A stretch of 32,000 bases of DNA from Telmatocola sphagniphila (GTDB lineage: Bacteria > Planctomycetota > Planctomycetia > Gemmatales > Gemmataceae): contig NZ_CP074694.1 of the NCBI RefSeq assembly GCF_018398935.1, forward strand, positions 6,240,001 through 6,272,000, written 5' to 3'. Shown here piece by piece: positions 8,848 to 30,151 of the stretch. Under the pieces are notes generated by a model that made no database searches, was not told the origin of the DNA, and saw nothing but the letters and a program-made list of their open reading frames with translations. Position numbers and translations under genes: made by a program. How positions within the stretch are numbered: the stretch's first letter is position 1; each line of letters opens with the position of its first letter.

Positions 8848-9244
8848 TTGCTGTCTCTCAGGTCTTTCACATGCGACGGGAGCGCCGAACGAGTTCGACG
8901 AGATACAAGTCTAGGTAGGGTATGGAGTAGTGTCAAGGAAAAATGGGCGTACGAAATAGCTTTGCCTCCGGGAATTCGCAACTCTTCTGGAAAAACATCA
9001 CTCAATTGAGAGTCGATTTCTTGGAAGATTTTTTTTGCGGCTCCGAATCGCGCTGAGCTTTCTGCACCGTAAAACCAACTTCCCGAAGTCGTCCGGGAAA
9101 TGTTAACGAATTATCAGAGTCGACGTGTGCTGATTGGCTGGGAAATTTGGGTGAAATAGGGGGACTGACTTGCTTCCGGATGTGGTACCATTAGAAAGTT
9201 AATGGACTGGGCACAAATTGGATCTGTAGCTATTCGAGGCCGTA

Positions 9245-11083
9245 ATGATTAGTTTCTCCTGGAAGCATCGCCGAAGCAATGACTTCTTTTCAAATTTCTT
9301 TGGGAATCCCCCGCTGTCGAGTTCGGCATTCGTCTCCCACCTTCGCGTCGAAGAATTGGAACAGAAAAATACGGTCAGTACGATGATGGGTGTCACTGGC
9401 GATAATATGCTGGTCTCCTTCAATACCAATAGCCCGAATGTTATCACCAACTCGGTTAACATCACCAATCTGGCCGGAACCACGGGTGAAGAACAGGTCG
9501 TCGGACTCTCCTACCGGCCGCGTACCGGACAGCTGTACGGCATAGGCGTCGAAACGGTTAATAATCAGGACTTGCTTCGCCTTTACATGATCAATCCCCT
9601 GACGGGAGTGGCGACTCAGGTAGGATCCAACAGCATCACGCTGCCTCCGGCGCTCTACTATGAAGTGAGCATCAATCCCGCAGCCGATGTCCTGCGCGTG
9701 GAAAGCACGGCCGATGTCAACATTCGCGTGAATCTCAATAACGGTTCTTTGATTTCCTCCGATACCACTTTCAAACCGGCCAGCCTATTGATCGATGGCA
9801 TCGCTTACGACCGAAATTTCAACGGCAACTTGGGTACTAACGGCACAACGCTTTATGGCATCGCCCGCAATGGAAACCAATTGGTGACCATCGGCGGCAT
9901 CAACCAGAATCCCAGTCCCAACAACGGCGCGGTCACTTCAATCGGACCATTAGGTGTGAACATCAGCCCGACGGCCGGTGTCGGTTTTGTGATTCCTCCT
10001 TCGGGAACTGCCGGTGGGACCGGCTATGCGGTGCTCACCGACAACAACACCAATCTGACAGGCCTTTATGCCATTAATCTCGCCACCGGCGCAGCGATCA
10101 AAGTCGGCAATGTCGGTTCCGGAACGACACCGCTCAATGGCTTGGCGGCGGTGCCCAATAGCGTCATTGCGGTCGGTTCCGGTCCGGGTACCAATGCCGA
10201 TGTTCGAGTTGTCAATGGCAACACCGGCGAACAGTTGATGGCGATCTCACCGTTCAATGGTTACCTGGGTGGTGTCAGTGTCGCCTTGGGAGATGTCAAT
10301 CGCGATTCTGTTCCGGATATCATTGTCGGCGCGGGCGCTGGGGCGCCAGGTGGGCATGTGAAAGTCTACGACGGGGCCACCGGAAATCTGATCTACAGTT
10401 TCCTGGCCTTCCCGGGATTCACCGGCGGTGTTCAAGTTGCATCCGGCGACGTCAACGGCGATGGCTATGCCGACATTATTGTGGCGGCCGAAGGGTCCTC
10501 CGGGGCTCAGGTGAAAATTTTCAGCGGCCAGAACGGTACCTTGCTCTCCAGCTTCGGTGCCTATCCCGGTTACAACGGCCAGTTTGCCATCGCCGCCGGG
10601 GATATAAACGGTAACGGGCTCTCGGAAATCGTGACGGCGGCAGCCGCCAACGGGCACATCAAGATCTTTAATGCTCAGGGCGGCGGAGCGACCACACCGG
10701 GGATTCCCAATAGCTTCCTGGAAAACAACGGAGTTTACCGCAATCTGAGCGTGGCGGTGGGCGATGTGAACTTCGACGGCCGACCCGACATCATTGTCGG
10801 CGAACAATATGGCGACGGGTTGATCAAAGTCTTCAGCGGCGCGAATGGCTCGCAAATACTCAACTTCAATGCCTATCCGGGAGGGGCTACCGGTGGTGTG
10901 AATGTGGCGGTGGGCGATGTGACGAGTTCCGGGGAATACTCAATTCGAACGATGCCCGCCGGTACGGGAAATCTGGCTTCGCTGGGGGCGTTCAGCGGGT
11001 TCGATGCCTCGACTCAAGCGGCCTTCACGCCTTTCTTGAACTACGCCGGTTCGGCTTCAATCGCCGGTTATCGGGTTAGCTAA
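9245..11083 (+). CDS. Secreted DUF4394-like / FG-GAP repeat (beta-propeller) protein
   Basis: 612-aa ORF. The N-terminal half resembles DUF4394 (LVSFNTNSPN...VVGLSYRPRTGQLYGIG...LYMINPLTGVATQVG). The C-terminal half has at least 5 FG-GAP-type repeats (GDVNRDSVPDIIVGAG, GDVNGDGYADIIVAA, GDINGNGLSEIVTAA, GDVNFDGRPDIIVGE, GDVTSSGEY). The N-terminus carries LRVEELEQK (9341-9367). Confidence 0.85.
   Translation: MISFSWKHRRSNDFFSNFFGNPPLSSSAFVSHLRVEELEQKNTVSTMMGVTGDNMLVSFNTNSPNVITNSVNITNLAGTTGEEQVVGLSYRPRTGQLYGIGVETVNNQDLLRLYMINPLTGVATQVGSNSITLPPALYYEVSINPAADVLRVESTADVNIRVNLNNGSLISSDTTFKPASLLIDGIAYDRNFNGNLGTNGTTLYGIARNGNQLVTIGGINQNPSPNNGAVTSIGPLGVNISPTAGVGFVIPPSGTAGGTGYAVLTDNNTNLTGLYAINLATGAAIKVGNVGSGTTPLNGLAAVPNSVIAVGSGPGTNADVRVVNGNTGEQLMAISPFNGYLGGVSVALGDVNRDSVPDIIVGAGAGAPGGHVKVYDGATGNLIYSFLAFPGFTGGVQVASGDVNGDGYADIIVAAEGSSGAQVKIFSGQNGTLLSSFGAYPGYNGQFAIAAGDINGNGLSEIVTAAAANGHIKIFNAQGGGATTPGIPNSFLENNGVYRNLSVAVGDVNFDGRPDIIVGEQYGDGLIKVFSGANGSQILNFNAYPGGATGGVNVAVGDVTSSGEYSIRTMPAGTGNLASLGAFSGFDASTQAAFTPFLNYAGSASIAGYRVS
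10268..11020 (+). repeat. Tandem ~50-codon FG-GAP repeat modules inside the 9245-11083 CDS (approximate bounds)
   Basis: A unit recurs five times: G-G-V-x-V-A-x-G-D-V-N-x-D-G-x-x-D-I-I-V...h-V-K-V/I-F-S-G-x-x-G-x-x-L-x-x-F-x-A-Y-P-G. Confidence 0.75.
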
Positions 11084-11116: not shown

Positions 11117-11902
11117 TCAGGAAAAGGGTAGCCGACCGGCGATGACGTCGGCTTCCCACTCCTCCATCAGCGGCCAGTCGGTCGCACACGTACCAAAATC
11201 GGCCATGTGCATGTAACCGCTCAGACGATCGATGGCTTTTTGAATTATCTGGGCCTCGCGTGGAAAGACCGGGCCGTGGCTGGGGAGGAGATACTTGGAA
11301 TCATCCCCCAGGATGCGAGACAGAGATTTCACAAAATCGCCCAGATGCGAGCCGTGGTGGGCGTCGATGACGCCGACGCAGCTATCCTTGTAGATGTTGT
11401 CGCCGCTGAACAGCAAATCGCGCATCTTGAAGCTGAGTTGACCCGGGGTATGTCCCGGTGTATGCCAGACGTCCAGTTTCACATCGCCGACCTCGATGGT
11501 GTCCCCTTCATTCAGTCGCAGGTCGATTTTGACAGGAACCATCGGCAAGTCGATGCCCTGAGCGGTGATTTTGGCGTAGGTTTCGATGGCATCGGCTTTT
11601 TCCAGCGGTTTGACGCTTTTCGGATGCGCGGCCACGCTGGTTTTCAGCCGGTCTTTAGCCCGCTTGAGCCCTTGAATGTGGTCGGCGTCGGCATGCGTGG
11701 CGATGATCATCTTGCACTTCGACAGGCTGAAATCCATCTGGCGGATCAGTTCGATGATCTCATCGACCGTATCCTCGAAGCCGATGTCGATCAGCAGAAA
11801 TTCGGAGCCTCCATCGATCAGGTAGACGTTCACTCCCAGCCGACGACCGGCCTGGTAGTTCATCTCTATGACGTTGGGGAAGAGGTATTTCCGACGAATC
11901 AT
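11117..11902 (-). CDS. MBL-fold metallo-hydrolase with a variant metal motif
   Basis: 261-aa ORF. VYLIDGGSEFLLIDIG, IIATHADADHIQG (HxDxDH where HxHxDH is expected), WHTPGHTPG and LLPSHGP are MBL-fold landmarks. Confidence 0.85.
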   Translation of the reverse strand: MIRRKYLFPNVIEMNYQAGRRLGVNVYLIDGGSEFLLIDIGFEDTVDEIIELIRQMDFSLSKCKMIIATHADADHIQGLKRAKDRLKTSVAAHPKSVKPLEKADAIETYAKITAQGIDLPMVPVKIDLRLNEGDTIEVGDVKLDVWHTPGHTPGQLSFKMRDLLFSGDNIYKDSCVGVIDAHHGSHLGDFVKSLSRILGDDSKYLLPSHGPVFPREAQIIQKAIDRLSGYMHMADFGTCATDWPLMEEWEADVIAGRLPFS

Positions 11903-11943
11903 CTGGTGCCACCTACGATTTTTTGAATCCCCTTATTTTACAC

Positions 11944-12957
11944 TCAGCGGGCGAAAGTATCCCGTAGAAATTGCTGAACGCTTTCCCAGCGGTCGGCACT
12001 CTTCTCAAAAGAGACCTCCATGCGCCGGACTTGATCGGGGCGTTTCAGCGTTTCGTGCAGCTTGGTCTGACTGGCTGTCGAGAGCGGAATTTGGAAGCCT
12101 CCTTTCAGGGCCAGCTTGTCTTCCGTTCCGGGATTCAGGAGGAATTTCACGAGCTTTTGGGCGTTTTCCGGATTCGGCCGATTTTTCAGGATGCAGATCG
12201 TGTTCGGGATAAAAAGGGTTCCTAAGGCCGGGTATTTCGGATGAGCCTCCTGGTCGAGGTAGAGTATTTTCACCGGCCGTTTGTCGTTGTATTCTTCGAT
12301 GGCATCGTCGGTGTCGGTCAGCCCGGCGGCGAAATCGCCCCGAGCCACCCGCTCGGCCACCTGTTTATTCCCGGCTAAAATCGTGATATCATTGGCTTTT
12401 AAACCATTGAAAAACGCCTGAGCGCCTTCCTCGCCCAATACTTCGAACAAACAGGCCGCGTGCGTTGCGGTCGTGCCGAACTGAGGCTTGGCCATGGCCA
12501 GCTTGCTTTTCCATTTCGGATCGGTCAGATCGAGAATGGATTTGGGATAATCGGCTTCTTTCAGCTTTTCGGTGTTCACAATCAGGATGCGGCCCCGCGC
12601 AGCGAAGGCCTGCCAGCAGCCGCTTTCGGGACGCGTCCAGGCCGGGTAGTTGGGATCGGGCTCCATGCGATCGAGAAGACCTTTACGCTCGAGACGGATC
12701 GTGTTGATGATTTCGTTATTCCAGAAAACATCGCAGCGGGGTCGTTTCGCCTCCTGCACGAGCTCTTCGAACAGACTGACCGACTTATTAGCTTCCGTAT
12801 CGAACTTGGTGGCGACCGGGATGCCCGTTTCCTTCTCAAAACTCGAAAGAATTTCCTGGGCGTATTCCATGTCCTGGGCGCAATACAGCACGGCCCGATC
12901 CGGCGATTTTCCGCAGCCGGAGAGAAGGGCCAGGAGAAGCAAACAGAGATATTTCAT
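11944..12957 (-). CDS. Periplasmic solute-binding lipoprotein, Fe(3+)/FbpA-AfuA-like family
   Basis: 337-aa ORF with lipobox LLALLSGCG. VLYCAQDMEYAQEILSSFEKETGIPV, FWNNEI, WQAFAARGRILIVNT, AMAKPQFGTTATHAA and GLTDTDDA match iron-type extracellular solute-binding proteins. No permease or ATPase gene is adjacent. Confidence 0.8.
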   Translation of the reverse strand: MKYLCLLLLALLSGCGKSPDRAVLYCAQDMEYAQEILSSFEKETGIPVATKFDTEANKSVSLFEELVQEAKRPRCDVFWNNEIINTIRLERKGLLDRMEPDPNYPAWTRPESGCWQAFAARGRILIVNTEKLKEADYPKSILDLTDPKWKSKLAMAKPQFGTTATHAACLFEVLGEEGAQAFFNGLKANDITILAGNKQVAERVARGDFAAGLTDTDDAIEEYNDKRPVKILYLDQEAHPKYPALGTLFIPNTICILKNRPNPENAQKLVKFLLNPGTEDKLALKGGFQIPLSTASQTKLHETLKRPDQVRRMEVSFEKSADRWESVQQFLRDTFAR

Positions 12958-12969
12958 GACGTAGCCAGA

Positions 12970-14187
12970 TTAGAGGTTTCTATGAGAATGAAAGGCCATG
13001 GCGGCGAAGCTGACGCTTTCGAATCCTTCCGGATGCACATATTGATCGTATTTCAAAAGCTGGCCTTGCCCGGGTTGTAGCGCACTCAAGAACAGTGAAG
13101 TCGGGGGTAGTCCGCAAATTCTCCTTCGGTCCTGTTCCTGCTGGATCACCCGATAATAGGCTTGGGCATCCGCCTTCTCGGCCGCTTCCAAAATCCGTCT
13201 ATCCTGAAGACGACTCGCGGCCAGGACGGTTTCATTTACCGGTTCGGGATCGTCGAATTTCGGACCAATATGAGCCAGGTCCCCGCTGATGATGGTACAA
13301 AAAGGTTCCTGGATCTCGGCGGCCAGCTTGCGAAGAGACCGAACCATTCGTTGAATGTCATCTGCGGACTCGGGGGTCGATCCCGCTTCGATGCAATCGG
13401 CATAAGAACCGACCAGCAGGGGGACAATGCGAATCGGCTCCGGAATCAGGTGCTGCAGCAGGAGCACTTCCAGTTCAATCGAATGCTCGGGCAGATGAGC
13501 GATGGGATCGTTGAATAAACCTTCGCCGTATAACTCGACCAGGCGGTCGATGAGCTTCTGATCGGTTTCGACAACGCCGAGCGGCGTCGCGAAGTTTTGT
13601 CGAGTGAGTGTGAATCGTTCGCCCGAATAGTGCGAGGTGGCAATGATCAGGAACAAGCGGGCGCGGCTTCGCTCGACCAGTTCTTTGTAACCCCACCCGT
13701 AGACGGTGCCGCCGCGGCCGTAATCCATATGCGGCACCAAGAGCCCCTGTATCTCGCCGTCGCGGGCAACTCGGCTGCCCCATTCGCCCGGTAGGCCGGG
13801 GCCGCCGTCAGCTGTGAACAGGCGATTTAATTCCGAGGCGATGATCTTGGGATCTTCCGAATAACAGCCGATACAGGAGGGTTTGCGAACCGGCCCAAAA
13901 ATCAGCTCCTGAAATTTCCGGCTATCCAGATAAAGGCAATCGTCCAATTCCGACACCAGTCGAGCCAGATCTTCGATTGATGGGTAACCACTTCGATTCT
14001 GAGTAACCTGAAAGTGAATTTCGTGCAGAGTTCGCTGGCCATTGAATAAGCGAATGAATTCGAAGGAGAGAGCGTTGAGAGTAATAGTGGGGGACAGCCG
14101 GAGCTGATCCTCCAGAATGTAATCGAGCGACTGAGCCGTGATGAATAGTCCGGGGCGAAATCGGGGTTTTTTCAATCGCTCGGGCAC
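12970..14187 (-). CDS. Memo-family protein (AmmeMemoRadiSam system protein B-like) with a ~100-aa N-terminal PqqD/RRE-like extension
   Basis: 405-aa ORF with a GTG start preceded by AGGAG. Memo landmarks are LLVPHMDYGRGGTVYGWGY, IIATSHY, IISGDLAHIGPKF and RRICGLPP. The N-terminal segment PRFRPGLFITAQSLDYILEDQLRLSPTITLNALSFEFIRLFNGQRTLHEIHFQV...IEDLARLVSELDDCLYL resembles PqqD-type peptide-binding domains. Confidence 0.8.
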   Translation of the reverse strand: MPERLKKPRFRPGLFITAQSLDYILEDQLRLSPTITLNALSFEFIRLFNGQRTLHEIHFQVTQNRSGYPSIEDLARLVSELDDCLYLDSRKFQELIFGPVRKPSCIGCYSEDPKIIASELNRLFTADGGPGLPGEWGSRVARDGEIQGLLVPHMDYGRGGTVYGWGYKELVERSRARLFLIIATSHYSGERFTLTRQNFATPLGVVETDQKLIDRLVELYGEGLFNDPIAHLPEHSIELEVLLLQHLIPEPIRIVPLLVGSYADCIEAGSTPESADDIQRMVRSLRKLAAEIQEPFCTIISGDLAHIGPKFDDPEPVNETVLAASRLQDRRILEAAEKADAQAYYRVIQQEQDRRRICGLPPTSLFLSALQPGQGQLLKYDQYVHPEGFESVSFAAMAFHSHRNL

Positions 14188-14196
14188 CGCCGGCTC

Positions 14197-15663
14197 CTAC
14201 TTCTTGCTGATGGTAGCTATACCCGGCGAGGCATTGAATCCTTTCACCAGCTTCGCATCGGCCAGATTCCAAATTCGAACTTCCCCATTGTAATCTCCTG
14301 CGGCAAGCAGTTTTCCATCGGGGCTCAAAGCCAGGGAGTAGACCTGATCGGTCAAACCACTCAGAGTTTTGGTATTCTTTTGCGTCTCGGCTTCCCAGAT
14401 CTTCACAGTTTTGTCGGCACCCGCAGTGGCTAATAGCAGTCGATCCGGTGAGCTGAGGAGTTTCAAGATATCTTCGTTGTGTCCACCCAGAACTTTCAAT
14501 TGTTTCCCCTGGGGAACCGCTTCCCATTGCCGAAGGACATGATCGGCTCCCGCGGAGAAGGCTTTCTTCCCATCTTTAGACCAGGCCACGCCGTAGACGT
14601 TGTTCTGATGTTCCGGAAATGTCGTGATCGATTCTCTATTCATCAGATCCCAGATCTTGGCGGTTTTATCGCGGGCGCAAGAGAGCAACCGTTCGCCAGT
14701 CGCATCGAAGGCGAGCGCGAAAACCCAGTCCGCATGGTTATCAATAACCTGCTCCAGCTTGGCCCGCCGAGCGCCGGCACTGACATCCCAGACCCGAATG
14801 GTTCGATCGCAGCCCCCCGCAGCTAGTAGATTGCCGTCCGGGGAGATTGCGAGACAGAGAATGGAATCGTCGCTATCCAGCAGTTGTTTGCGGAACACCT
14901 GGGGATCGCTGACCCCATCGAGGAAAATAACTTCTCCTTCCTTTTTCCCGGCCGCCTGCAGGTTATAGACGCGAATGTCCCCTTCCTGGCCCGGTCGTGA
15001 ACCGGCGACTATCAGGGAGCCATCGCGGTGAAAGAGCATCGCCAGGGCCCGCTCGGCCCGGGTCCGGAGGCGCTTCGTGAGTTTACTGGAATCGACATTC
15101 CACACGGTCAGTTCGTGGTGACCTCCGGCGACGAGTTCCTTCCCATCGGGAGTGAACGCCAGTGCGGTGACCGGCATGGCGAACTTGTATTGCGTAGGCG
15201 ATGCGGGCGGTTGCCAGCGCACCCGCAACTCTTTCACCAAATCGCTTTTGGTATCGATGCCCGAATCGAGTTTGGCCCCTTGCTCAATCCAACGGCGAAC
15301 GATCTCCGCTTTCTCTTTGGGCACAGCACTGATGCCGTCTTTGCGGGGTGGCATACGGCGATCTTCATTCGTGACCATTAAGTCGTAAAGATCGCTCTCC
15401 TGCGGTTTGCCTGGCGATACGGTTTCCCCATTGGAGCCACCGGCGATCAGTCTGGCAAAGGTAGTCATCTCGTATTTGCCGGAACGCTTTTTGGCATCGT
15501 GACAGGCGAAGCAGTAGTCCTTCAGGATGGGAGCTACATCGTTGATGAAACTGACTGGTGCCGCGGGGGACTGGGCGCAGGTCGACGATTCGCTGTAACG
15601 GAGCAACCAGAGGATCAGTGCACTGAGTAGAGCACAGAAAACGCAGAAACGGAACGATTTCAT
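14197..15663 (-). CDS. Planctomycete cytochrome c (PSCyt1) domain protein fused to 7 WD40 repeats, with signal peptide
   Basis: 488-aa ORF with heme motif CFACH in VAPILKDYCFACHDAKKRSGKYEM...RRMPP. Seven WD40-like units follow (LTVWNV, IRVYNL, IRVWDV, AKIWDL, LRQWEA, VKIWEA, VRIWNL). The N-terminus is hydrophobic. Confidence 0.88.
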   Translation of the reverse strand: MKSFRFCVFCALLSALILWLLRYSESSTCAQSPAAPVSFINDVAPILKDYCFACHDAKKRSGKYEMTTFARLIAGGSNGETVSPGKPQESDLYDLMVTNEDRRMPPRKDGISAVPKEKAEIVRRWIEQGAKLDSGIDTKSDLVKELRVRWQPPASPTQYKFAMPVTALAFTPDGKELVAGGHHELTVWNVDSSKLTKRLRTRAERALAMLFHRDGSLIVAGSRPGQEGDIRVYNLQAAGKKEGEVIFLDGVSDPQVFRKQLLDSDDSILCLAISPDGNLLAAGGCDRTIRVWDVSAGARRAKLEQVIDNHADWVFALAFDATGERLLSCARDKTAKIWDLMNRESITTFPEHQNNVYGVAWSKDGKKAFSAGADHVLRQWEAVPQGKQLKVLGGHNEDILKLLSSPDRLLLATAGADKTVKIWEAETQKNTKTLSGLTDQVYSLALSPDGKLLAAGDYNGEVRIWNLADAKLVKGFNASPGIATISKK

Positions 15664-15761: not shown

Positions 15762-16805
15762 CTAATCGCTGAGCGTTTTCCGAATCTCCGCTGCTTTTTT
15801 CGCGGCCTCGGTCATGGGAAATTGCTTGATCAAATCATCGAGCTTTTCCTTGGCCGCTTCCTGCTTGCCGGCATCGAGGATGAACTGAATCGCTTTCAAT
15901 TTATTTGCAGCCAGTTTCTCTGTGTCGGCAGACACTTCGGGTGGCTTTTCGGCCGGTCGTTTCGCCTCGGTTTTCGTCTCTTTATTCGTAGCGACCGGCG
16001 CCTTCTTTTTGGGCCGCATGACGAACAACTCGGGATTCTTGCCCCAGATCTGCTCCATCGCTTTGTAGCCTTCGGGATCGAGCGTTTTCAAATCTTCGCG
16101 CGTGACGATCGGCTTGCGGCCTTTATCGAGGTAGCTGCAGGTCAGCTCCGCGAAATATTCCCGGGCACTGGTGGCTGCGTAAACTTTCGCCGGTTGGCCG
16201 CGCGAAGGGGGATCGCCGTAGAGCTTACGATCCATGGCGACCTGATAGGCTTTGACAATCTGAGGCTGCTGATAGTTGTAAATCGCATGGTCCACCGCAT
16301 GGGCGAACTCGTGCAGAATCACACATTCTTCGTTAGGGTTATCCGGCTGGTAGACTTTGGTGATGTAAGACATCTTCACAATCGAAACGTTGTTTCCGCG
16401 TTCCCGGTCGTTGGGGAAATAAGCGGCGACCGCTCGGTCGTTGGCGATTTTCGCGCTCCCATCCCACTCGACGAAGATCGGTAGCCGACGCAGTTTGACG
16501 ACGTACTCCGCTTTCATGACCTGGATGATGGTCTGCAATTCCTGATCCAGAGCTTCGAGCGGCTTTACTTCGTATTCGTCGCTATTCTGGTGTTTGAGTA
16601 CTTCATCCGAAACGTAAACGTTGAATCCATGCAGTTTTTTGAGCGTGAAACCGGCTAAAGGGGAGTTGGATTTCGCCTTGGTCTGTGCGAAAACGGTTGG
16701 GGAAGCGCTGAAGTAAATCAGCAGGCTACAGAGAACGACCAGAACACACGAGCGCCGAAACATACACTTAAACCCGTGGAGAAGGCGACGAAGCTTCCAC
16801 TTCAT
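15762..16805 (-). CDS. Secreted putative zinc metallopeptidase (HEXXH) with Lys-rich helical C-terminal region
   Basis: 347-aa ORF with signal-like segment CVLVVLCSLLIYFSASPTVFAQ. It carries HEXXH in CVILHEFAHAVDH and a downstream Glu-containing EYFAE (SAREYFAELTCSYL). The start could be 16805 or the internal Met at 16763. Confidence 0.55.
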   Translation of the reverse strand: MKWKLRRLLHGFKCMFRRSCVLVVLCSLLIYFSASPTVFAQTKAKSNSPLAGFTLKKLHGFNVYVSDEVLKHQNSDEYEVKPLEALDQELQTIIQVMKAEYVVKLRRLPIFVEWDGSAKIANDRAVAAYFPNDRERGNNVSIVKMSYITKVYQPDNPNEECVILHEFAHAVDHAIYNYQQPQIVKAYQVAMDRKLYGDPPSRGQPAKVYAATSAREYFAELTCSYLDKGRKPIVTREDLKTLDPEGYKAMEQIWGKNPELFVMRPKKKAPVATNKETKTEAKRPAEKPPEVSADTEKLAANKLKAIQFILDAGKQEAAKEKLDDLIKQFPMTEAAKKAAEIRKTLSD

Positions 16806-16849: not shown

Positions 16850-17047
16850 CTATTTGCCGGAGGTGTAACCGAAAAAGTGCATGGCGAGATAGCTCGCCAG
16901 ACTATAAGCCAAAACCAGAAGAACACTCAGTGTCCATACGGTAAAAGCCAGTCGGTCACCCAGTCGCACGGGAGCTCCGCTGGCGGTGGTGTGAGGCAGC
17001 GGAAGTTCATCTTGAACCGAATTGGTGTTGGAAGAGGTGGCGTTCAT
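16850..17047 (-). CDS. Small single-pass membrane protein (hypothetical)
   Basis: The ORF track starts at TTG 17098, but ATG 17047 is preceded by AAGGAG. The 65-aa product MNATSSNTNS... has one hydrophobic helix, LAFTVWTLSVLLVLAYSLASYLAMHFF. Confidence 0.5.
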   Translation of the reverse strand: MNATSSNTNSVQDELPLPHTTASGAPVRLGDRLAFTVWTLSVLLVLAYSLASYLAMHFFGYTSGK

Positions 17048-20688: not shown

Positions 20689-23409
20689 TTGATTGGTTGT
20701 GTACGGGTTTTTAATTATTGTTTTCCCTGTGTCATTGCGTACCACGTGAATATTTGGAAATCGAAAATCCGATTCGATCAAATTCCGGCCGGAAATGGGG
20801 CTGGAAGCGCGAATTGCCTGCCTAACACCGAATCCTCCACGCATTTTGAAGTGGCCGGGGCGAATGTTACCCGGGCGACCGATACCCGTCTGGGAAATTC
20901 CAAGCAAAAACTTCAGATTCCCGATGAAATTGATGGCCGGTACAACCTCTTTGAAGAGCTGGCTACCGGCGGCATGGGACGGGTTTATAAAGCCTATGAC
21001 CGCGTTCTGAATCGCAATATCGCCCTAAAAATCCTGCGCAGCCGGTTCATGGCGCAGGACGAAATTGCCTTGCGATTCATGGAAGAAGCCCAGATCATGG
21101 CCCGACTCCAGCATCCCGGCGTAGTGCCCGTCTATGAGACCGGAAAGCTCAAGGACGGACGACCGTTCATCGCGATGAAGCTGATCGAGGGTTGCACACT
21201 TAAAAATTTGCTTACGGATCGCAGTAATCCCAAGCAGGAACTTGCCCACTACATCAATATTTTCGAACAGGTTTGCCAGACTGTCGCCTTCGGCCATTCC
21301 CGCGGCATCATTCATCGCGATATTAAGCCCGAAAACATCATGGTGGGAGCTTTCGGGGAAGTTCTGGTGATGGATTGGGGCTTAGCGAAAAGTCTCGATC
21401 CCAAATTCGCCTCGCTACAGCCTTCCTTGCAGTGGCCGGTCTCGAAAAATGAGATCGATGACGAAATTGAAGACTTTGAAGACACCAAAGTTATCAAAGT
21501 GAATATGGTTCCGGCGCGTATGCCGGAGGAAAATATCACGAACGCTGGTCAGATTCTGGGCACCTTCCAGTACATGCCCCCGGAGCAGGCTCGGGGGGAC
21601 CACGATAAGCTCTCCTTCCAAAGCGACGTATTTTCCCTGGGCGCCCTACTTTGCGAATTGTTGACCGGCAGCCCGCCCTACAGTTCCGTTAAAGCAGAGG
21701 CCCGGCGGCAGGCTCAAGAAGCCGACCTCCGTCATGCATTCAACATGTTGAATGATTCCGGGGCGGATGCCGACCTGATTCAACTGGCCAAACACTGTTT
21801 AAACGAAAATCCGCACGATCGTCCCAAATCGGCCGAGCAAGTGGCTCTGTCGGTAGGATCTTATCTGCGCGGCGTTCAGGAACGCTTGCATAATGATCTG
21901 GTTCGTCGGATTGCCGCTCAGGCGCACGATCACCACACCCGGCATAAATCGCAAGTTATCAAACAGTTTCGCAATAATGCGATTCTGACATCCATTGCAC
22001 TGTTCATTGTTTTCGTGACCGTCGGATCCTTCCTTCTGATGTACCGCAATCAGCAGTTTCATCAGCGGTACGTCCAGACAGCCCAACAGGAATCGGCCCG
22101 CAAGGAACTCGACCATAAACTGGAAAATGTCACAGCGCTTCTGGGCAAACTTTCCACCAATTCCAGCGATTTCAGCCAGTCGATCGACACGGTGGAGCAG
22201 GCGAGCCAATTGATGCTCGATGCCGATTCCCTCGCTCAACAGACTGCACAACCTATCGCCGATAAAGCCCGAGTCGACGAGTTACGCTCGCAGTGTGATT
22301 CCTGGAAGCAAAATCTGATTTTGTTGGCCGATTTGGAGCGGATCTCTTTTGAGGATGACGAACTCCGACCCGTGAAAAATCGATCCGAAGAGGTCGGCCG
22401 TCGCTATCAGACTGCTTTCCAAAATCATCCTTTGAAACCGCTCGACGGTCCTTTGGAAGATGCCAAAGCCCGACTGCAAGGGTCGTCCATCGAAAGGCTG
22501 CTGCGACCGCATTTGTTAAAATGGTTGAGCCTCGCCGTGGAAGCCGAGCAAAGAAATCGTCTCTCGGGGTTGTTGAAATTTGAAGGGCCCAATCAAAATC
22601 AGATGGCCACTGAATGGCTGCGAGCCGTTCAGAAGAAGGACTCTGATACGCTGGTGCCGATGACCCGATTTTTGCTTTCGGCGAAGTTCGAAGCGGCGGA
22701 ACTCCGCGTTTTCGCCGAGCAGATTTATCAGCTGGGCCATCCCGAAGCCGCTGAGAAAATTCTTTTGAGTGCCCAAGTCAACAATCCAGAGTCCTACGAA
22801 GTCAATCGAGATCTGGGTAGGCTCTATCGACATATACCAGGACGTTCTTCGGATGCCGTTCGCTTTTGTACGGCGGCGTTATATTTACATCCGCGTTCCC
22901 CACTGCCGCATCTGGCTCTGGCCTCGGCGTTACGGGAAGATCATAAAGATGCGGCGGCTCTGCAAGAACTGAAAAACGCCCTGAAGTTGAACGAAACAGA
23001 CTTTCAGACCAACGTCCTTCTGGCAGAACTGGATCGCGAGCAAGGGCGTTTTGCCCAGGCCCTTGTGGCCTATCGCCGCATTCTCACCAAGCCCGAAGAC
23101 CTGAGCCGCGAACAACTTGGCAAAACGAGATTATCTGCCGCGGAAGTGGCGATTCAAGCTACGGCGAGCGATGCCGCCCGCGCACCCGCTCTGCGGCTCG
23201 AAGCGCTGAACTTTCTTCGAAATCAGTGGGTGGCTTGTAGCATGGACCGCCGGCCGGAAGATCGCAGCGAGTTCGAAAGCTGGCTGAAAAATGAAATTTT
23301 TGCCCCCGTCCGGAAACCCTCCTTTCTCGAAAAATTGGATGAGAAAGAGCGTGCGGACTGGACCACCTTCTGGCAGGAAGTGGAAAGTGGACTGCAAATC
23401 AATCCCTGA
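20689..23409 (+). CDS. Transmembrane Ser/Thr protein kinase with C-terminal TPR-like region
   Basis: Hanks motifs GGMGRVYKA, IALKIL, HRDIKPENIMV, DWGLAK (DFG variant) and GTFQYMPPE. One TM (AILTSIALFIVFVTVGSFLLMY) is followed by ~430 helical/TPR-like aa. No in-frame ATG precedes the kinase domain. TTG 20689, GTG 20746 and GTG 20851 are the candidates, so the start is uncertain. Confidence 0.9.
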   Translation: MIGCVRVFNYCFPCVIAYHVNIWKSKIRFDQIPAGNGAGSANCLPNTESSTHFEVAGANVTRATDTRLGNSKQKLQIPDEIDGRYNLFEELATGGMGRVYKAYDRVLNRNIALKILRSRFMAQDEIALRFMEEAQIMARLQHPGVVPVYETGKLKDGRPFIAMKLIEGCTLKNLLTDRSNPKQELAHYINIFEQVCQTVAFGHSRGIIHRDIKPENIMVGAFGEVLVMDWGLAKSLDPKFASLQPSLQWPVSKNEIDDEIEDFEDTKVIKVNMVPARMPEENITNAGQILGTFQYMPPEQARGDHDKLSFQSDVFSLGALLCELLTGSPPYSSVKAEARRQAQEADLRHAFNMLNDSGADADLIQLAKHCLNENPHDRPKSAEQVALSVGSYLRGVQERLHNDLVRRIAAQAHDHHTRHKSQVIKQFRNNAILTSIALFIVFVTVGSFLLMYRNQQFHQRYVQTAQQESARKELDHKLENVTALLGKLSTNSSDFSQSIDTVEQASQLMLDADSLAQQTAQPIADKARVDELRSQCDSWKQNLILLADLERISFEDDELRPVKNRSEEVGRRYQTAFQNHPLKPLDGPLEDAKARLQGSSIERLLRPHLLKWLSLAVEAEQRNRLSGLLKFEGPNQNQMATEWLRAVQKKDSDTLVPMTRFLLSAKFEAAELRVFAEQIYQLGHPEAAEKILLSAQVNNPESYEVNRDLGRLYRHIPGRSSDAVRFCTAALYLHPRSPLPHLALASALREDHKDAAALQELKNALKLNETDFQTNVLLAELDREQGRFAQALVAYRRILTKPEDLSREQLGKTRLSAAEVAIQATASDAARAPALRLEALNFLRNQWVACSMDRRPEDRSEFESWLKNEIFAPVRKPSFLEKLDEKERADWTTFWQEVESGLQINP

Positions 23410-23439
23410 CGCTGGCTCCGGGAATCATATCGTTACTTC

Positions 23440-24369
23440 ATGACTGTCGATCTGACAACTCGTTTGGGGCGACTGACCCTTCGCAATCCGATTCTGACCG
23501 CCTCGGGAACCTTCGGCTATGCCCGCGAGATGGCCGATTTCGTCGACTTCACTCAGTTGGGCGGCCTCGTCCCCAAAACGGTAACCCGGCAACCGCGTGC
23601 GGGCAATCCTCCACCCCGGACCGTCGAAACCGCCTCCGGATTATTGAATGCCATCGGACTGGATAACGATGGTATCGAACACTTTATTTTCCATCATTTG
23701 CCCTATCTGAGAACTCTTCCGACTGCCCTCGTCGCCAACATCGCCGGTAAAAGCGAAGAGGAATTCCCAGAGATGGCCGGCATGCTGGCCAATCAAGCGG
23801 GCATCGCGGCAATCGAACTGAATTTGTCCTGTCCGAACGTGGCGGGCGGTGCCGACTTCGCCACGCAACCCGCTGTCACCAAAAGAATTGTGGAAAGAGT
23901 CCGGGCGGCTTGTTCATTTCCGATTCTGGCCAAGCTGACCCCCAATGTGACCGATATTTTGCCCATTGTCCGGGCTGCGGCCGAAGGGGGAGCGGATGCG
24001 GTCACGCTGGTGAACACCTACCTCGGCATGGCCATCGACTGGAAGAAGCGAAAACCGATTCTCGGCAATCAGACCGGCGGATTGAGCGGCCCGGCCATCA
24101 AACCGATGGTTTTGCGACTGGTTTGGCACGTCGCCCGAGCCAATATTCTCCCCATTGTGGCCGTGGGGGGCATCGCCAATGTCGATGATGTCATGGAATT
24201 TCTGGTGGCTGGGGCTCAGGCAGTGCAGATCGGCACGGCTAATTTTTACGATCCCTCGGCCTCCAGTCGAATTGTGGGCCAATTAACCGATGCACTTTCT
24301 TATCTTCGGGCCGAGCAATTGAAAGATGTAATCGGTACCGCTCACACTCAACTCCCTTCAAATAGCTAG
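23440..24369 (+). CDS. pyrD: Dihydroorotate dehydrogenase, class 1 catalytic subunit
   Basis: 309-aa ORF with LTASGTFGY, NAIGLDNDG, IELNLSCPNV (catalytic Cys), KLTPNVTDI, GGLSGPAIKP and VGGI. Confidence 0.92.
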   Translation: MTVDLTTRLGRLTLRNPILTASGTFGYAREMADFVDFTQLGGLVPKTVTRQPRAGNPPPRTVETASGLLNAIGLDNDGIEHFIFHHLPYLRTLPTALVANIAGKSEEEFPEMAGMLANQAGIAAIELNLSCPNVAGGADFATQPAVTKRIVERVRAACSFPILAKLTPNVTDILPIVRAAAEGGADAVTLVNTYLGMAIDWKKRKPILGNQTGGLSGPAIKPMVLRLVWHVARANILPIVAVGGIANVDDVMEFLVAGAQAVQIGTANFYDPSASSRIVGQLTDALSYLRAEQLKDVIGTAHTQLPSNS

Positions 24370-24379
24370 AATAGAGTAC

Positions 24380-25543
24380 TTGTCGTGGTCTGATTGTTCA
24401 GGGAGTTTAGCGCGCTTGGAATTTCTTTATCTGCTGGCAATTCCGTTACTTATAGCGGTGAATGCGCTGTTCGTGGCTGTGGAATTTGCCCTGGTATCCG
24501 TCCGGAAAACTCGCGTTGAAGAGATGGTTCAGCAGAAACTGGCCGGGGCCAAATCGGTCAAATTCGCCTTCGACAATATTGATCGCAGTATCGCCACCTC
24601 CCAATTGGGGATAACGATCGCCAGCATTGCTATCGGAGCAGTTGGGGAACCGGTGCTGGCCAGGCTCATCGAACCGCTGTTAGGCGCCCTTTCCGGTTCG
24701 ATTCTGTTCATTACCAAACATGGTCTGGCGACGACGGTCGCCCTGATCTGCATTACGCTTCTGCACGTCGTTCTCGGCGAGCAGGTTCCCAAGCTGGCTT
24801 CGCTCCAGGCGCCGGATCGCACGGCACTCTGGCTCTGCCCGCCGTTGAACTTTTTTTCGGGAGTGATGAACCCGCTGATCATTTTGATGAACGCGGTGGG
24901 TAACTTTTTGCTGCGCTTATTTGGTTACAAGGCTGCCACCAATGGCGTGCACATTCACTCGATTCAGGAATTGCGGATGCTGATCGATGAAACTGAGGAC
25001 GCCGGGCTGATCGATGCCGAATCGGCCGATTACGTGCAGAACGTGTTCGAGCTGCGCGACAAGAAAGTCCGGGAGTGTATGGTACCGATCGAAAAGATGG
25101 ATGCACTCGAACTTCATTCCTCTTCCGAGGCAATTCTGGAATTCGTCCGCTCTTGCGGGCATACCCGTATTCCCGTTTACGATGGCACGCGCGATAACAT
25201 CATCGGAATTCTGAACACGAAGAATCTCTTCTACTTTTTCAGCCTGATGAATGCCGTCGTGCTGGACGATGCGCTCTACCCGGTCGAGTTTCTGAGGGCC
25301 GATGAGTTAATCTCCAACGCTCTGCGCGAACTGAAGAAGACCAAGGTCCCGATGGCGATTGTCCGGGATGAGAATAAGATGGTGGTCGGTATGATCACCC
25401 TGGAAGATATCATCGAGGAGATCGTCGGGGACATCGAAGATGAGCACGATGGCCCGACGATGAAACTGCGAAGAGTCCTCAAGAAGCCGACGGACTCTGG
25501 GGCCTCCCGCAGTTCGGTTCAAATCCGACCGCATTCCACTTAA
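24380..25543 (+). CDS. CNNM/DUF21-CBS (hemolysin/CorB family) membrane protein
   Basis: 387-aa ORF with a TTG start. It has an N-terminal multi-TM DUF21-like region, a CBS pair (RECMVPIEKMDAL..., GHTRIPVYDG..., PMAIVRDENKMVVGMITLEDIIEEIVGDIEDEHD). The usual CorC_HlyC C-terminal domain appears to be missing. Confidence 0.82.
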   Translation: MSWSDCSGSLARLEFLYLLAIPLLIAVNALFVAVEFALVSVRKTRVEEMVQQKLAGAKSVKFAFDNIDRSIATSQLGITIASIAIGAVGEPVLARLIEPLLGALSGSILFITKHGLATTVALICITLLHVVLGEQVPKLASLQAPDRTALWLCPPLNFFSGVMNPLIILMNAVGNFLLRLFGYKAATNGVHIHSIQELRMLIDETEDAGLIDAESADYVQNVFELRDKKVRECMVPIEKMDALELHSSSEAILEFVRSCGHTRIPVYDGTRDNIIGILNTKNLFYFFSLMNAVVLDDALYPVEFLRADELISNALRELKKTKVPMAIVRDENKMVVGMITLEDIIEEIVGDIEDEHDGPTMKLRRVLKKPTDSGASRSSVQIRPHST

Positions 25544-27987: not shown

Positions 27988-28444
27988 AGTGTTTCTCCTG
28001 ATTTTGGCCGGCTTTTGATACTCTTTTTTTGCTTCGGAGTTCGTTTCCGGCTTGTGTTACGGAATTATAACGTGCTCGAAGGTAGAACTTGCATAACCTC
28101 AAGCATTTTTCATTTTAAGTTGGGAATCTTCGCCGCAATGGGGCAATCTGGGTTCCTCCGAGATTGCCGAATTTAGGGTGATTTCGCAATTTGCGGAAAG
28201 TGCCGACCCTGGGCTCTTTCACGCCTGGGCAAACCTGTGAAAGTATACTGAGAAGACCTGTAAAATCGATTGCATTTCAGCGAATTCGCTATTAGATTAC
28301 CTACATCACAAAGCACTCGCAATTGCTCCTGTGACCCACCGAAACTCGAATCACGCAACCGTGTTAGTTGCTGAATCCTCACTGTTTTCAGCAGACACTA
28401 AACGATTCAGCGAAAGGTTCTCTTTTCTCTAGGGAGGCCAATGC

Positions 28445-28915
28445 ATGTATAAGGCTTTACAGGTAGCCGAAGCCATTTTGGCGTACTGCTACGAACAGGA
28501 ACATTCCTGTAGCAATCGTAAACTGCAAATGCTGCTCTATTACGTTCAAGGCTGGCATTTGGCGACCGCGGACGAACCTCTTTTCGATGAAGTGATACAT
28601 GCCGGGCCGATCGGCCCAGTGATTCACACCGTCGAAAGGCGTTATAAAGGGCATGGGAATCGACCCATCCACGTATATATCATTGATGCGGCGTATCACG
28701 AAAAACTGCGTCCCATCGTCAGCGAAGTCTGGTCGGCCTACGGAGATATGACCGATTTCGATCTTCAGAAATTGATTCAGGAAGAAATTCCCTATTTGGC
28801 CGCCCGACAGGATCTCATTCCGACCGACCCCGCCTTACCGGCGATTTCCATCGACGAACTTTGGGTTTTCTTCCAGGATCAACTGTCTGCCCGCGAAGCG
28901 TATAGCCGGAATTGA
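28445..28915 (+). CDS. Panacea / DUF4065 domain protein (SocA/GepA/PanA antitoxin-type)
   Basis: 156-aa ORF with GGAGG 7 nt upstream of the ATG. VAEAILAYC...NRKLQMLLYYVQGWHLATADEPLFDEVIHAGPIGPVIHTVERRYKGHGNRPI matches the DUF4065 signature (KLQKLLYY.QGW.L....PLF.E.....GPV...Y). The gene is AT-richer than its neighbours. Confidence 0.75.
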   Translation: MYKALQVAEAILAYCYEQEHSCSNRKLQMLLYYVQGWHLATADEPLFDEVIHAGPIGPVIHTVERRYKGHGNRPIHVYIIDAAYHEKLRPIVSEVWSAYGDMTDFDLQKLIQEEIPYLAARQDLIPTDPALPAISIDELWVFFQDQLSAREAYSRN

Positions 28916-28963
28916 GTCGTCTGATATTTGATTAAGTTATCCTACAATTCGGAACTGTTGCTT

Positions 28964-29004
28964 TTGCTGAGTTATGTCCGACAGCGCTCAGCAAGCATTT
29001 TGTC
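28964..29004 (+). terminator. Hairpin downstream of the Panacea gene (terminator or operator candidate)
   Basis: Perfect 8-bp inverted repeat TTGCTGAG (28964-28971) / CTCAGCAA (28987-28994) with a 15-nt loop, followed by GCATTTTGTC. Confidence 0.45.
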
Positions 29005-29104
29005 ACGTCGAATTGAGTTCCTTCTCATATCAAGTTCCTAGAGATTCCAATCACACTCTTGACAAAAGCTGTTTTCAACCCCTTTTTTAAAGGAGTATTC
29101 GTCC

Positions 29105-29965
29105 GTGAAGATTTCGGATATCGAAACAAAAGGACTATCCTTAGTCCTTGCTACACCGAAACAAGTTGAATCGCTTGAAAACGAGCTCTGGATTACATTT
29201 CCCAAAGGCTATCTACAGTACATTACCAAAATTGGGGAAGGCATATTAGGCGGTCATTACATTCGAATTTATCCACCTTGGAGAATCAAATCAGAACTCA
29301 CGGATTGGCGAAACAGAATCAAAAAATATTGGTTCTGGGAAAAAGGAAAGAAAATTCTCCCCCAAACACGAGCCCTAGAGTGTGTAATACTAGGAGACAC
29401 TTTGGATGGGGATGAAATTGTTTTCCATCCTGCAAAACCTCAAACTATTTTCATTTTGCCACGTAATTTCGAAAAAATTTTTGCGGTCGAAGGAGGACTG
29501 TTTGAAGCGATCGATTGGCTGTGTACCGCGGGTAAATTAACGAAAGCTTTCACGGAACGGGAGATCGTTCCATTCGATAGCCGAAAGCAGAACTCCGAAG
29601 GCTCGATGTCTGCCCAAAAAGAAGCTGATCCCCCAGGTGAGTCTCTTTCGGAGCTAATAGATGCGGGAAAGAGATGGGCCAAGCGGAATAAAGCATTCAA
29701 GACCTGTAAAGAGATCTTGAAAAATATTGTCGGAGAGCAGGAAGAGACCAAGGTTATTTACGAGGCAATCGGGTTCCAAGGAGATTACCCCTATTCAGCT
29801 GGTTGCTATATTTCAGTTATCGAGGTAATTGATTCACAAACCAAATTAAGTTTAGGCTTTTTAACAGCTCATGTGAATGAGGGGAGTTACGGAAGCAGCT
29901 TCGAAGCCAACAAAGCAAACAGAAAAAAATTGGGACGAAAATTAGATCCTCATGCGCCAGGATAA
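29105..29965 (+). CDS. SUKH (SMI1/KNR4)-like N-terminal domain fused to an unassigned ~120-aa C-terminal region
   Basis: 286-aa ORF with a GTG start 9 nt after AAAGGAG. VESLENELWITFPKGYLQYITKIGEGILGG and CVILGDTLDGDEIVFHPAKPQTIFILPRNFEKIFAVEGGLFEAIDWL fit the SMI1/KNR4 pattern (E..LG..LP..Y..FL...NGG ... G..Y.......V....F.EFL). No motif recognised in residues ~165-286. One 60-nt line counted by hand gives about 38% GC. Confidence 0.6.
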   Translation: MKISDIETKGLSLVLATPKQVESLENELWITFPKGYLQYITKIGEGILGGHYIRIYPPWRIKSELTDWRNRIKKYWFWEKGKKILPQTRALECVILGDTLDGDEIVFHPAKPQTIFILPRNFEKIFAVEGGLFEAIDWLCTAGKLTKAFTEREIVPFDSRKQNSEGSMSAQKEADPPGESLSELIDAGKRWAKRNKAFKTCKEILKNIVGEQEETKVIYEAIGFQGDYPYSAGCYISVIEVIDSQTKLSLGFLTAHVNEGSYGSSFEANKANRKKLGRKLDPHAPG

Positions 29966-30151
29966 ATGCTCTCATCTAGATCGTTCGAAGTCGCCCACAT
30001 TTCATAGCGATTCGCTAATGCTGACCCATCATGTAGTGGTATTCTCAAGTTTTTTCGCTACCGACATTCTCTTTTGGTGCAATTCTGTATACTATTTCCT
30101 TTGTCGCATAAAGAGAAAACTATCCCAATATTGTTCTAAGTGAGATCTCTC

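Follow-up and report, generated by a model that had tools for sequence, protein, structure and literature searches.

A WD40/RRE-Memo gene pair as the probable conserved core of a tightly packed four-gene string in Telmatocola sphagniphila

In the 32,000-nucleotide stretch of the Telmatocola sphagniphila genome analysed here (contig NZ_CP074694.1, positions 6,240,001 to 6,272,000; hereafter the window), four open reading frames follow each other on the minus strand at very short distances. In the order of reading, they encode a protein with a PSCyt1 domain and a WD40 propeller (14197-15663, 488 aa; hereafter the WD40 protein), a protein with an N-terminal domain resembling a RiPP recognition element (RRE) and fused to a Memo domain (12970-14187, 405 aa, GTG start; RRE-Memo), a solute-binding protein (SBP) of the lipoprotein type (11944-12957, 337 aa), and a protein of the metallo-beta-lactamase (MBL) fold (11117-11902, 261 aa). 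An earlier note, made from the sequence of this stretch, had suggested that the four products belong to one periplasmic redox or metal-handling pathway. According to the present results, the string is quite likely a composite, in which a conserved two-gene WD40/RRE-Memo module is followed by two unrelated genes, and it is very likely that the four genes do not form a conserved system.

The evidence for this view comes from gene order in relatives. A set of 171 loci was assembled, comprising 80 Memo loci from Gemmataceae genomes (homologues 47-57% identical), 5 exact-protein loci, 80 WD40 loci from metagenomes, and three loci each for the SBP and the MBL protein. A single-sequence Memo query of the genome contigs gave no matches, and the Memo homologues in these contigs were retrieved with an alignment as the query. 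Co-occurrence was counted by tblastn, in which every protein of the window was searched against these loci. Memo was present in 93 and the WD40 orthologue in 99 of them, the two occurring together in 27. At the same time, neither the SBP nor the MBL protein was found with any other of the four in a single one of the 171 loci, and their orthologues were spread over six different neighbourhoods (three loci each). The four-gene order, whose conservation the earlier note had proposed as a test, was absent for the whole set (0 of 171 loci), and what stood of it was the recurring WD40-Memo pair. Viewed from the Memo side, 17 of the 65 genome loci that could be evaluated (about 26%) carry the WD40 orthologue upstream and in the same orientation; viewed from the WD40 side, Memo follows in 9 of the 62 metagenome loci that could be evaluated (about 15%). 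Both of the closest Memo relatives (59% and 57% identity) have a PSCyt1-WD40 gene directly upstream; downstream they carry a DUF1559-type gene and an aldehyde dehydrogenase gene in place of SBP and MBL. The SBP and MBL genes are probably unrelated, family-wide single genes that happen to follow the module here.

The description of the string itself, as first given, was accurate. Direct reading of the sequence confirmed the four minus-strand genes, the spacers of 9, 12, and 41 nt between them, and the AGGAG in the first of these gaps. At this WD40/Memo junction (14188-14198, minus strand), the AGGAG (14198-14194) shares two bases with the end of the TAG stop codon of the WD40 gene and is separated by a 6-nt spacer from the GTG start at 14187. 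In a consensus scan, all three spacers were free of terminator-like sites, and the string itself contained no sigma-70-like site; the sole sigma-70-like site on the minus strand (17167-17138) precedes a fifth gene of the same direction (15762-16805), and the 3' end of the string is 33 nt from a convergent DUF4394/FG-GAP gene. The four genes are probably co-transcribed in this one Gemmataceae genome.

Such packing, the Shine-Dalgarno sequence before Memo, the spacers without terminator-like sites, and the origin of all four products from families able to bind metals could together be taken as signs of a single lineage-specific redox or metal-handling pathway in the periplasm. However, short gaps are nothing special in this genome, since three functionally unrelated genes at 20689-25543, for a Ser/Thr kinase with TPR repeats, a dihydroorotate dehydrogenase, and a CNNM/CBS protein, share one direction and are packed equally tightly (gaps of 30 and 10 nt). 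The separation of the SBP and MBL genes from Memo, from WD40, and from each other in the 171 loci also argues against such a pathway, as does the fact that the two closest Memo relatives keep the WD40 gene and not the other two. Moreover, the N-terminus of the WD40 protein resembles a signal peptide and predicts export, but inspection revealed no signal peptide at the N-termini of the Memo and MBL proteins, which would place both of these proteins in the cytoplasm. With two products apparently cytoplasmic, iron binding by the SBP unsupported (see below), and the gene order shared with no relative, a four-gene pathway for periplasmic metal handling is left without support, and we regard it as very improbable.

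Gene neighbourhood of the WD40/RRE-Memo pair

Across Gemmataceae, the module sits in a loose WD40-(kinase)-RRE-Memo-hydrolase neighbourhood. The WD40-Memo pairs cover at least six clades of the Memo neighbour-joining tree at about 50% protein identity, and they are always co-directional, with the WD40 gene upstream. The commonest neighbour of Memo is an Abhydrolase_1 protein of about 300 aa, encoded directly downstream in 32 of about 70 Gemmataceae loci (about 46%; at 9212-10141 in locus L003, at 8188-9036 in L073, and in about 30 more loci), often with a 4-nt overlap (ATGA) between the Memo and hydrolase genes. The hydrolase gene also directly follows the WD40 gene in three metagenome loci; in the 32-kb window, an alpha/beta hydrolase is absent. 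In the Limnoglobus/Fimbriiglobus clade, an orthologous Ser/Thr kinase gene is inserted between WD40 and Memo (at 5392-6945 in L069, from Limnoglobus roseus; also in L020, L029, L039, L041, L054, L064, L065, L083, L140, and L150). The hydrolase has an extended, Cys-rich N-terminus in one subclade only, and for this reason the extension was rejected as a candidate target of the RRE-like domain. Additionally, several records of metagenome-assembled genomes titled "uncultured Alcaligenaceae bacterium" (L012, L014, L032, L062, L065, L072, and L078) carry RRE-Memo loci of the Gemmataceae type; these Alcaligenaceae labels are probably wrong.

It could be argued that no functional module exists, that WD40 and Memo lie side by side only as residual Gemmataceae gene order, and that the string in the window is an accidental co-directional packing. 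Gene order in planctomycetes is generally poorly conserved, the linkage is found in only 15-26% of the loci, the two products are predicted in different compartments, and the neighbours differ in each of the examined loci, all of which is consistent with such an origin. However, the persistence of the pair over so many clades and at such divergence, in a constant orientation and order, would be less expected of it, and the occurrence of WD40, kinase, Memo, and hydrolase genes in several pairings, including WD40-hydrolase, is more typical of a functionally tied set. We consider mere residual gene order unlikely, though by no means negligible; our confidence in a functional tie between WD40 and RRE-Memo is moderate, and the matter could well go either way.

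The composition of the neighbourhood also bears on the possibility that RRE-Memo belongs to the AmmeMemoRadiSam system as a degenerate member whose partners, AMMECR1 and the radical-SAM protein, are encoded elsewhere in the genome. The protein passes the cut-off of TIGR04336 (system protein B) with 94.7 bits against 26, and public sources name its homologues "AmmeMemoRadiSam system protein B". Unlike the genes of that system, however, RRE-Memo has PSCyt1-WD40, alpha/beta hydrolase, and Ser/Thr kinase genes as neighbours, and neither the Memo nor the TIGR04336 model extends into its RRE-like domain. The whole 32-kb window, five Pfam-annotated loci of Memo relatives, and the recurrent neighbour families of 81 loci yielded neither AMMECR1 nor a radical-SAM gene. 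The absence of these partners from the window, and likewise of ATP-binding cassette (ABC) permease and ATPase genes, had been pointed out in the earlier note and was borne out here. In relatives, likewise, neither AMMECR1 nor radical-SAM genes appeared in the five Memo-relative loci, and no ABC permease or ATPase gene appeared in the three loci of SBP orthologues. A degenerate AmmeMemoRadiSam member is, in our opinion, extremely unlikely.

A further likeness, of architecture only, concerns the BphC/BphD and LigAB-type pairs. Gene pairs for an extradiol dioxygenase and a meta-cleavage-product hydrolase occur in aromatic catabolism, and in about 46% of the RRE-Memo loci a protein with an extradiol-dioxygenase-like fold is likewise followed directly by an Abhydrolase_1 protein. 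Unlike the catabolic pairs, however, the hydrolase is missing from the window, and no other catabolic genes are found nearby; we know of no demonstrated ring-cleavage activity of a Memo protein.

Domains of the RRE-Memo and WD40 proteins

The Memo catalytic domain, which is of the class III extradiol-dioxygenase-like type, is encoded at 12970-13887 (minus strand), and its metal site is intact. The protein matches PF01875 with 123 bits, in addition to its match to TIGR04336. Comparison of the AlphaFold model with MEMO1 by Foldseek gave a TMt (the TM-score normalised to the length of the target) of 0.78 and an E-value of 4e-16, and class III extradiol dioxygenases were also matched. In an alignment of 28 homologues, H153, H186, D303, H306, and C358 are invariant and aligned with the His/His/Asp/His/Cys metal site of MEMO1. 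Thus, the fold and the metal-site residues are common to RRE-Memo and the MEMO1/Memo family (PF01875; structures 3bcz, 7kq8 with bound iron, and 7l5c with bound copper). At the same time, RRE-Memo shares only about 20% identity with MEMO1, it has an extra conserved N-terminal RRE-like domain of about 100 aa, it carries C-I-G-C ahead of the conserved Tyr where the canonical Memo proteins have A-G-x-[FW], and its lineage is bacterial and mostly of Gemmataceae. The near-invariant C-I-G-C-Y at the start of the Memo domain (residues 105-108, window 13864-13875) is the second CxxC motif in the module. Memo proteins are conserved from bacteria to humans, and their biochemical reaction is unsettled; to our knowledge, no substrate is known for a bacterial Memo protein.

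The N-terminal RRE-like domain (about residues 1-100; 13888-14187, minus strand) was assigned on the basis of structure as a PqqD-like winged helix. The N-terminal 100 aa or so are conserved throughout the family in the same 28-homologue alignment, and the domain modelled alone by AlphaFold reached a predicted local distance difference test (pLDDT) score of about 96 over residues 11-90, with three strands followed by three helices. Its best Foldseek matches in the PDB are solved RREs, with TMt 0.73 for TbiB1 and 0.69 for PqqD; lasso B1, ThcOx, TruD, PbtF, and TglI were matched as well. The TbiB1 and PqqD matches had a Foldseek probability of 1.00 with E-values from 3e-3 to 6e-2, and the RRE matches as a whole had E-values from 3e-3 to 0.1. 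Compared with the PqqD sequence model (PF05402), on the other hand, the N-terminus of the window protein gave no match at E<=10, and 24 homologues gave none at E<=1. In the earlier note, the WD40 protein, the Memo domain, the SBP, and the variant MBL protein had been labelled in agreement with our hidden Markov model (HMM) scores and with the H-A-D-A-D-H motif of the last; the label RRE-Memo, missed by sequence HMMs, found its support in the predicted fold. The AlphaFold model supports the N-terminal domain as an RRE at the level of the fold. The full-length model (pLDDT 90, predicted TM-score 0.87) suggests, through the latter value, that the RRE-like and Memo domains stand in a fixed arrangement.

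With an E-value limit of 1e-10, a profile of the N-terminal domain matched 493 clusters (50% identity level), and all 10 of the distant full-length or near full-length matches that were checked proved to be Memo fusions. The fusion itself is known from one line in a structure-based RRE survey of 2025, in which RRE-Memo fusions were called "unprecedented in RiPPs" (that is, in ribosomally synthesised and post-translationally modified peptides) and no function was assigned (PMC12710340). The point of interest here is an uncharacterised RRE-Memo enzyme, distributed throughout Gemmataceae in a context other than that of AmmeMemoRadiSam.

RRE-Memo resembles the RREs of PqqD, TbiB1, ThcOx, and TruD in the order of three strands and three helices and in a TMt of about 0.7, and it follows the usual architecture of RiPP systems, in which an RRE is fused to a modifying enzyme. 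Unlike those systems, it has no PF05402 match, and no adjacent precursor or other RiPP genes were found. The search for precursors was carried out by all-against-all clustering of the open reading frames from 81 loci, with a minimum length of 40 aa; the recurrent small frames near Memo in these loci were all shadow frames inside the Memo, WD40, or hydrolase genes. Since no conserved precursor frame was found, the substrate may be the tail of a protein, or it may be encoded elsewhere.

The product of the WD40 gene (14197-15663) combines a PSCyt1 match of 43.9 bits, with the CxxCH motif of haem c, and a WD40 propeller match of 184 bits. Its orthologues are 52-62% identical (more than 350 bits), and C51/C54/H55 and R103-M-P-P are invariant among them. 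In addition, an invariant C-[VIL]-x-C-[AGV] (C7 and C10; window 15634-15645; loci L022-L169) opens the hydrophobic signal-like segment at the N-terminus of this family. When the 2503 long reading frames of all fetched loci were scanned with a regular expression for this N-terminal CxxC, 52 frames matched, every one of them a WD40 orthologue; the pattern was built from the WD40 family itself, and its specificity holds within the fetched loci only. Single residues are not usually conserved within signal peptides. The N-terminal CxxC might serve as a tag for recognition, as a site of metal binding or acylation, or as a signal anchor.

The SBP, the MBL-fold protein, and the surrounding genes

The SBP carries the lipobox LLSGC with an invariant C15, and it is matched by SBP_bac_6/11 models and by the FbpA/PhnS/AfuA cluster (SBP cluster D). 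Comparison with PDB sequences gave E-values from 1e-20 to 1e-23 for this cluster, and HitA and FbpA chains were matched with E-values from 6e-20 to 5e-23. By both the HMM and the PDB sequence matches, the protein belongs to the same cluster as FbpA/HitA and their non-iron relatives (PhnS, P5PA, and the AfuA type), and its family profile matches the pyridoxal phosphate-binding P5PA and the AfuA-type 4r72 as well as iron binders; AfuA binds sugar phosphates. Public sources name the family "iron(III) transport system substrate-binding protein". However, in a family-profile alignment, the positions H9/E57/Y195/Y196 of Haemophilus influenzae FbpA (1d9v), which we take to be its iron ligands, correspond to D29, N81, and an invariant LTDTDDA in the SBP. 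With the FbpA ligand positions substituted and non-iron relatives equally matched, "iron-type" is a family label that says little about the ligand. As far as the alignment allows a judgement, the SBP probably does not bind Fe(III), and the annotation of its family as an iron(III) SBP is probably wrong; the role of a metal-binding protein, which it had been given in the suggested pathway, is not supported, all four iron-ligand residues of FbpA being missing. The SBP also differs from FbpA in having no adjacent permease or ATPase gene, either in the window or in the three orthologous loci. The orthologues in these loci, which represent three unrelated neighbourhoods, are 55-69% identical.

The MBL-fold protein matches Lactamase_B with 80.3 bits and the diiron ODP model with 27.6 bits, just above the threshold of 27.2, and it matches chains of YcbL-like glyoxalase II with an E-value of 1e-14. 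Its motif is an invariant H-A-D-A-D-H where the canonical one is HxHxDH, and the invariant residues of the family are H70, D72, D74, H75, H147, H151, D168, and H209. Two closer assignments were tried and rejected, namely, that of a subclass B3 beta-lactamase (89 against a cut-off of 240) and that of a glyoxalase II (GloB 49.8 against a cut-off of 200.8); the motif differs in both cases, and all of the NCBIfam models for B3 lactamases and glyoxalase II remained below their cut-offs. Across Gemmataceae, the protein shows an unusually high identity of 75-80%. The three orthologues whose loci were compared (76-80% identical) lie in three other neighbourhoods, and two of them (L087 and L088) come immediately after a gene for a phosphofructokinase.

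Upstream of the string, 98 nt from the WD40 gene, lies the fifth co-directional gene mentioned above (15762-16805, minus strand), which encodes an exported protein of 347 aa with a HEFAH motif, a putative metallopeptidase; its matches to ATLF/M90 peptidases are all below threshold. In four metagenome loci, sequences similar to the HEFAH protein immediately precede the WD40 gene, with strong matches in L156 (209 bits) and L126 (127 bits) and weak, partial ones in L138 and L141. A small open reading frame of 65 aa (16850-17046, minus strand), preceded by a strong Shine-Dalgarno sequence, AAGGAG, and containing one predicted transmembrane helix, sits between the promoter-like site at 17167-17138 and the HEFAH gene. 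It was considered as a precursor peptide for the RRE-like domain and rejected, as it had no homologues in the 171 loci. Rfam and tRNA scans of the window gave no matches. Farther along, the GC content falls to 0.42-0.48 at 28001-30000, against about 0.54 elsewhere in the window; this region lies just upstream of recA and holds an antitoxin-like gene with a SocA/Panacea domain (28445-28915) and an SMI1/KNR4 (SUKH) gene (29105-29965), and it may be an acquired islet.

Proposed function and significance

If the RRE-like domain acts as its fold suggests, it would hold a peptide or protein segment and present it to the metal centre of the Memo domain. The His/His/Asp/His/Cys centre would then carry out a metal-dependent, probably oxidative, modification of the held segment, and the hydrolase commonly encoded downstream could process the product of Memo. 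This mechanism is put forward with low confidence. Taken further, RRE-Memo, the WD40 protein with its CxxC, the hydrolase, and the clade-specific kinase might constitute an undescribed, Gemmataceae-wide system for the modification of proteins or peptides, in which the RRE-like domain guides Memo to a segment for metal-dependent oxidation and the target could be the CxxC leader of the WD40 pre-protein. We regard a system of this kind as quite unlikely.

Several points weigh against the view of the string as a conserved module with two unrelated followers, and against the role suggested for RRE-Memo. The limited WD40-Memo linkage discussed above could reflect decaying ancestral synteny without function, and with the WD40 protein exported and Memo cytoplasmic, a direct interaction is not obvious. 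The nearest relatives compared are about 59-69% identical, which leaves room for a very young, lineage-specific four-gene operon. The RRE assignment is derived from a predicted structure, with modest Foldseek E-values and without sequence-HMM support, and no conserved small open reading frame that could be a candidate precursor was found beside Memo in the 81 loci.

For the biology of planctomycetes, the present case means that tight strings of apparently translationally coupled genes in this genome can join unrelated genes, so spacing alone is no basis for proposing pathways in these bacteria. For the Memo family, the permanent fusion of Memo to a peptide-recognition-like domain in a family as large as 493 clusters points to a peptide or protein substrate, and the recurrent partner genes would make the question of the RRE-Memo substrate directly testable. 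If true, RRE-guided modification would provide the first defined substrate class for bacterial Memo proteins.

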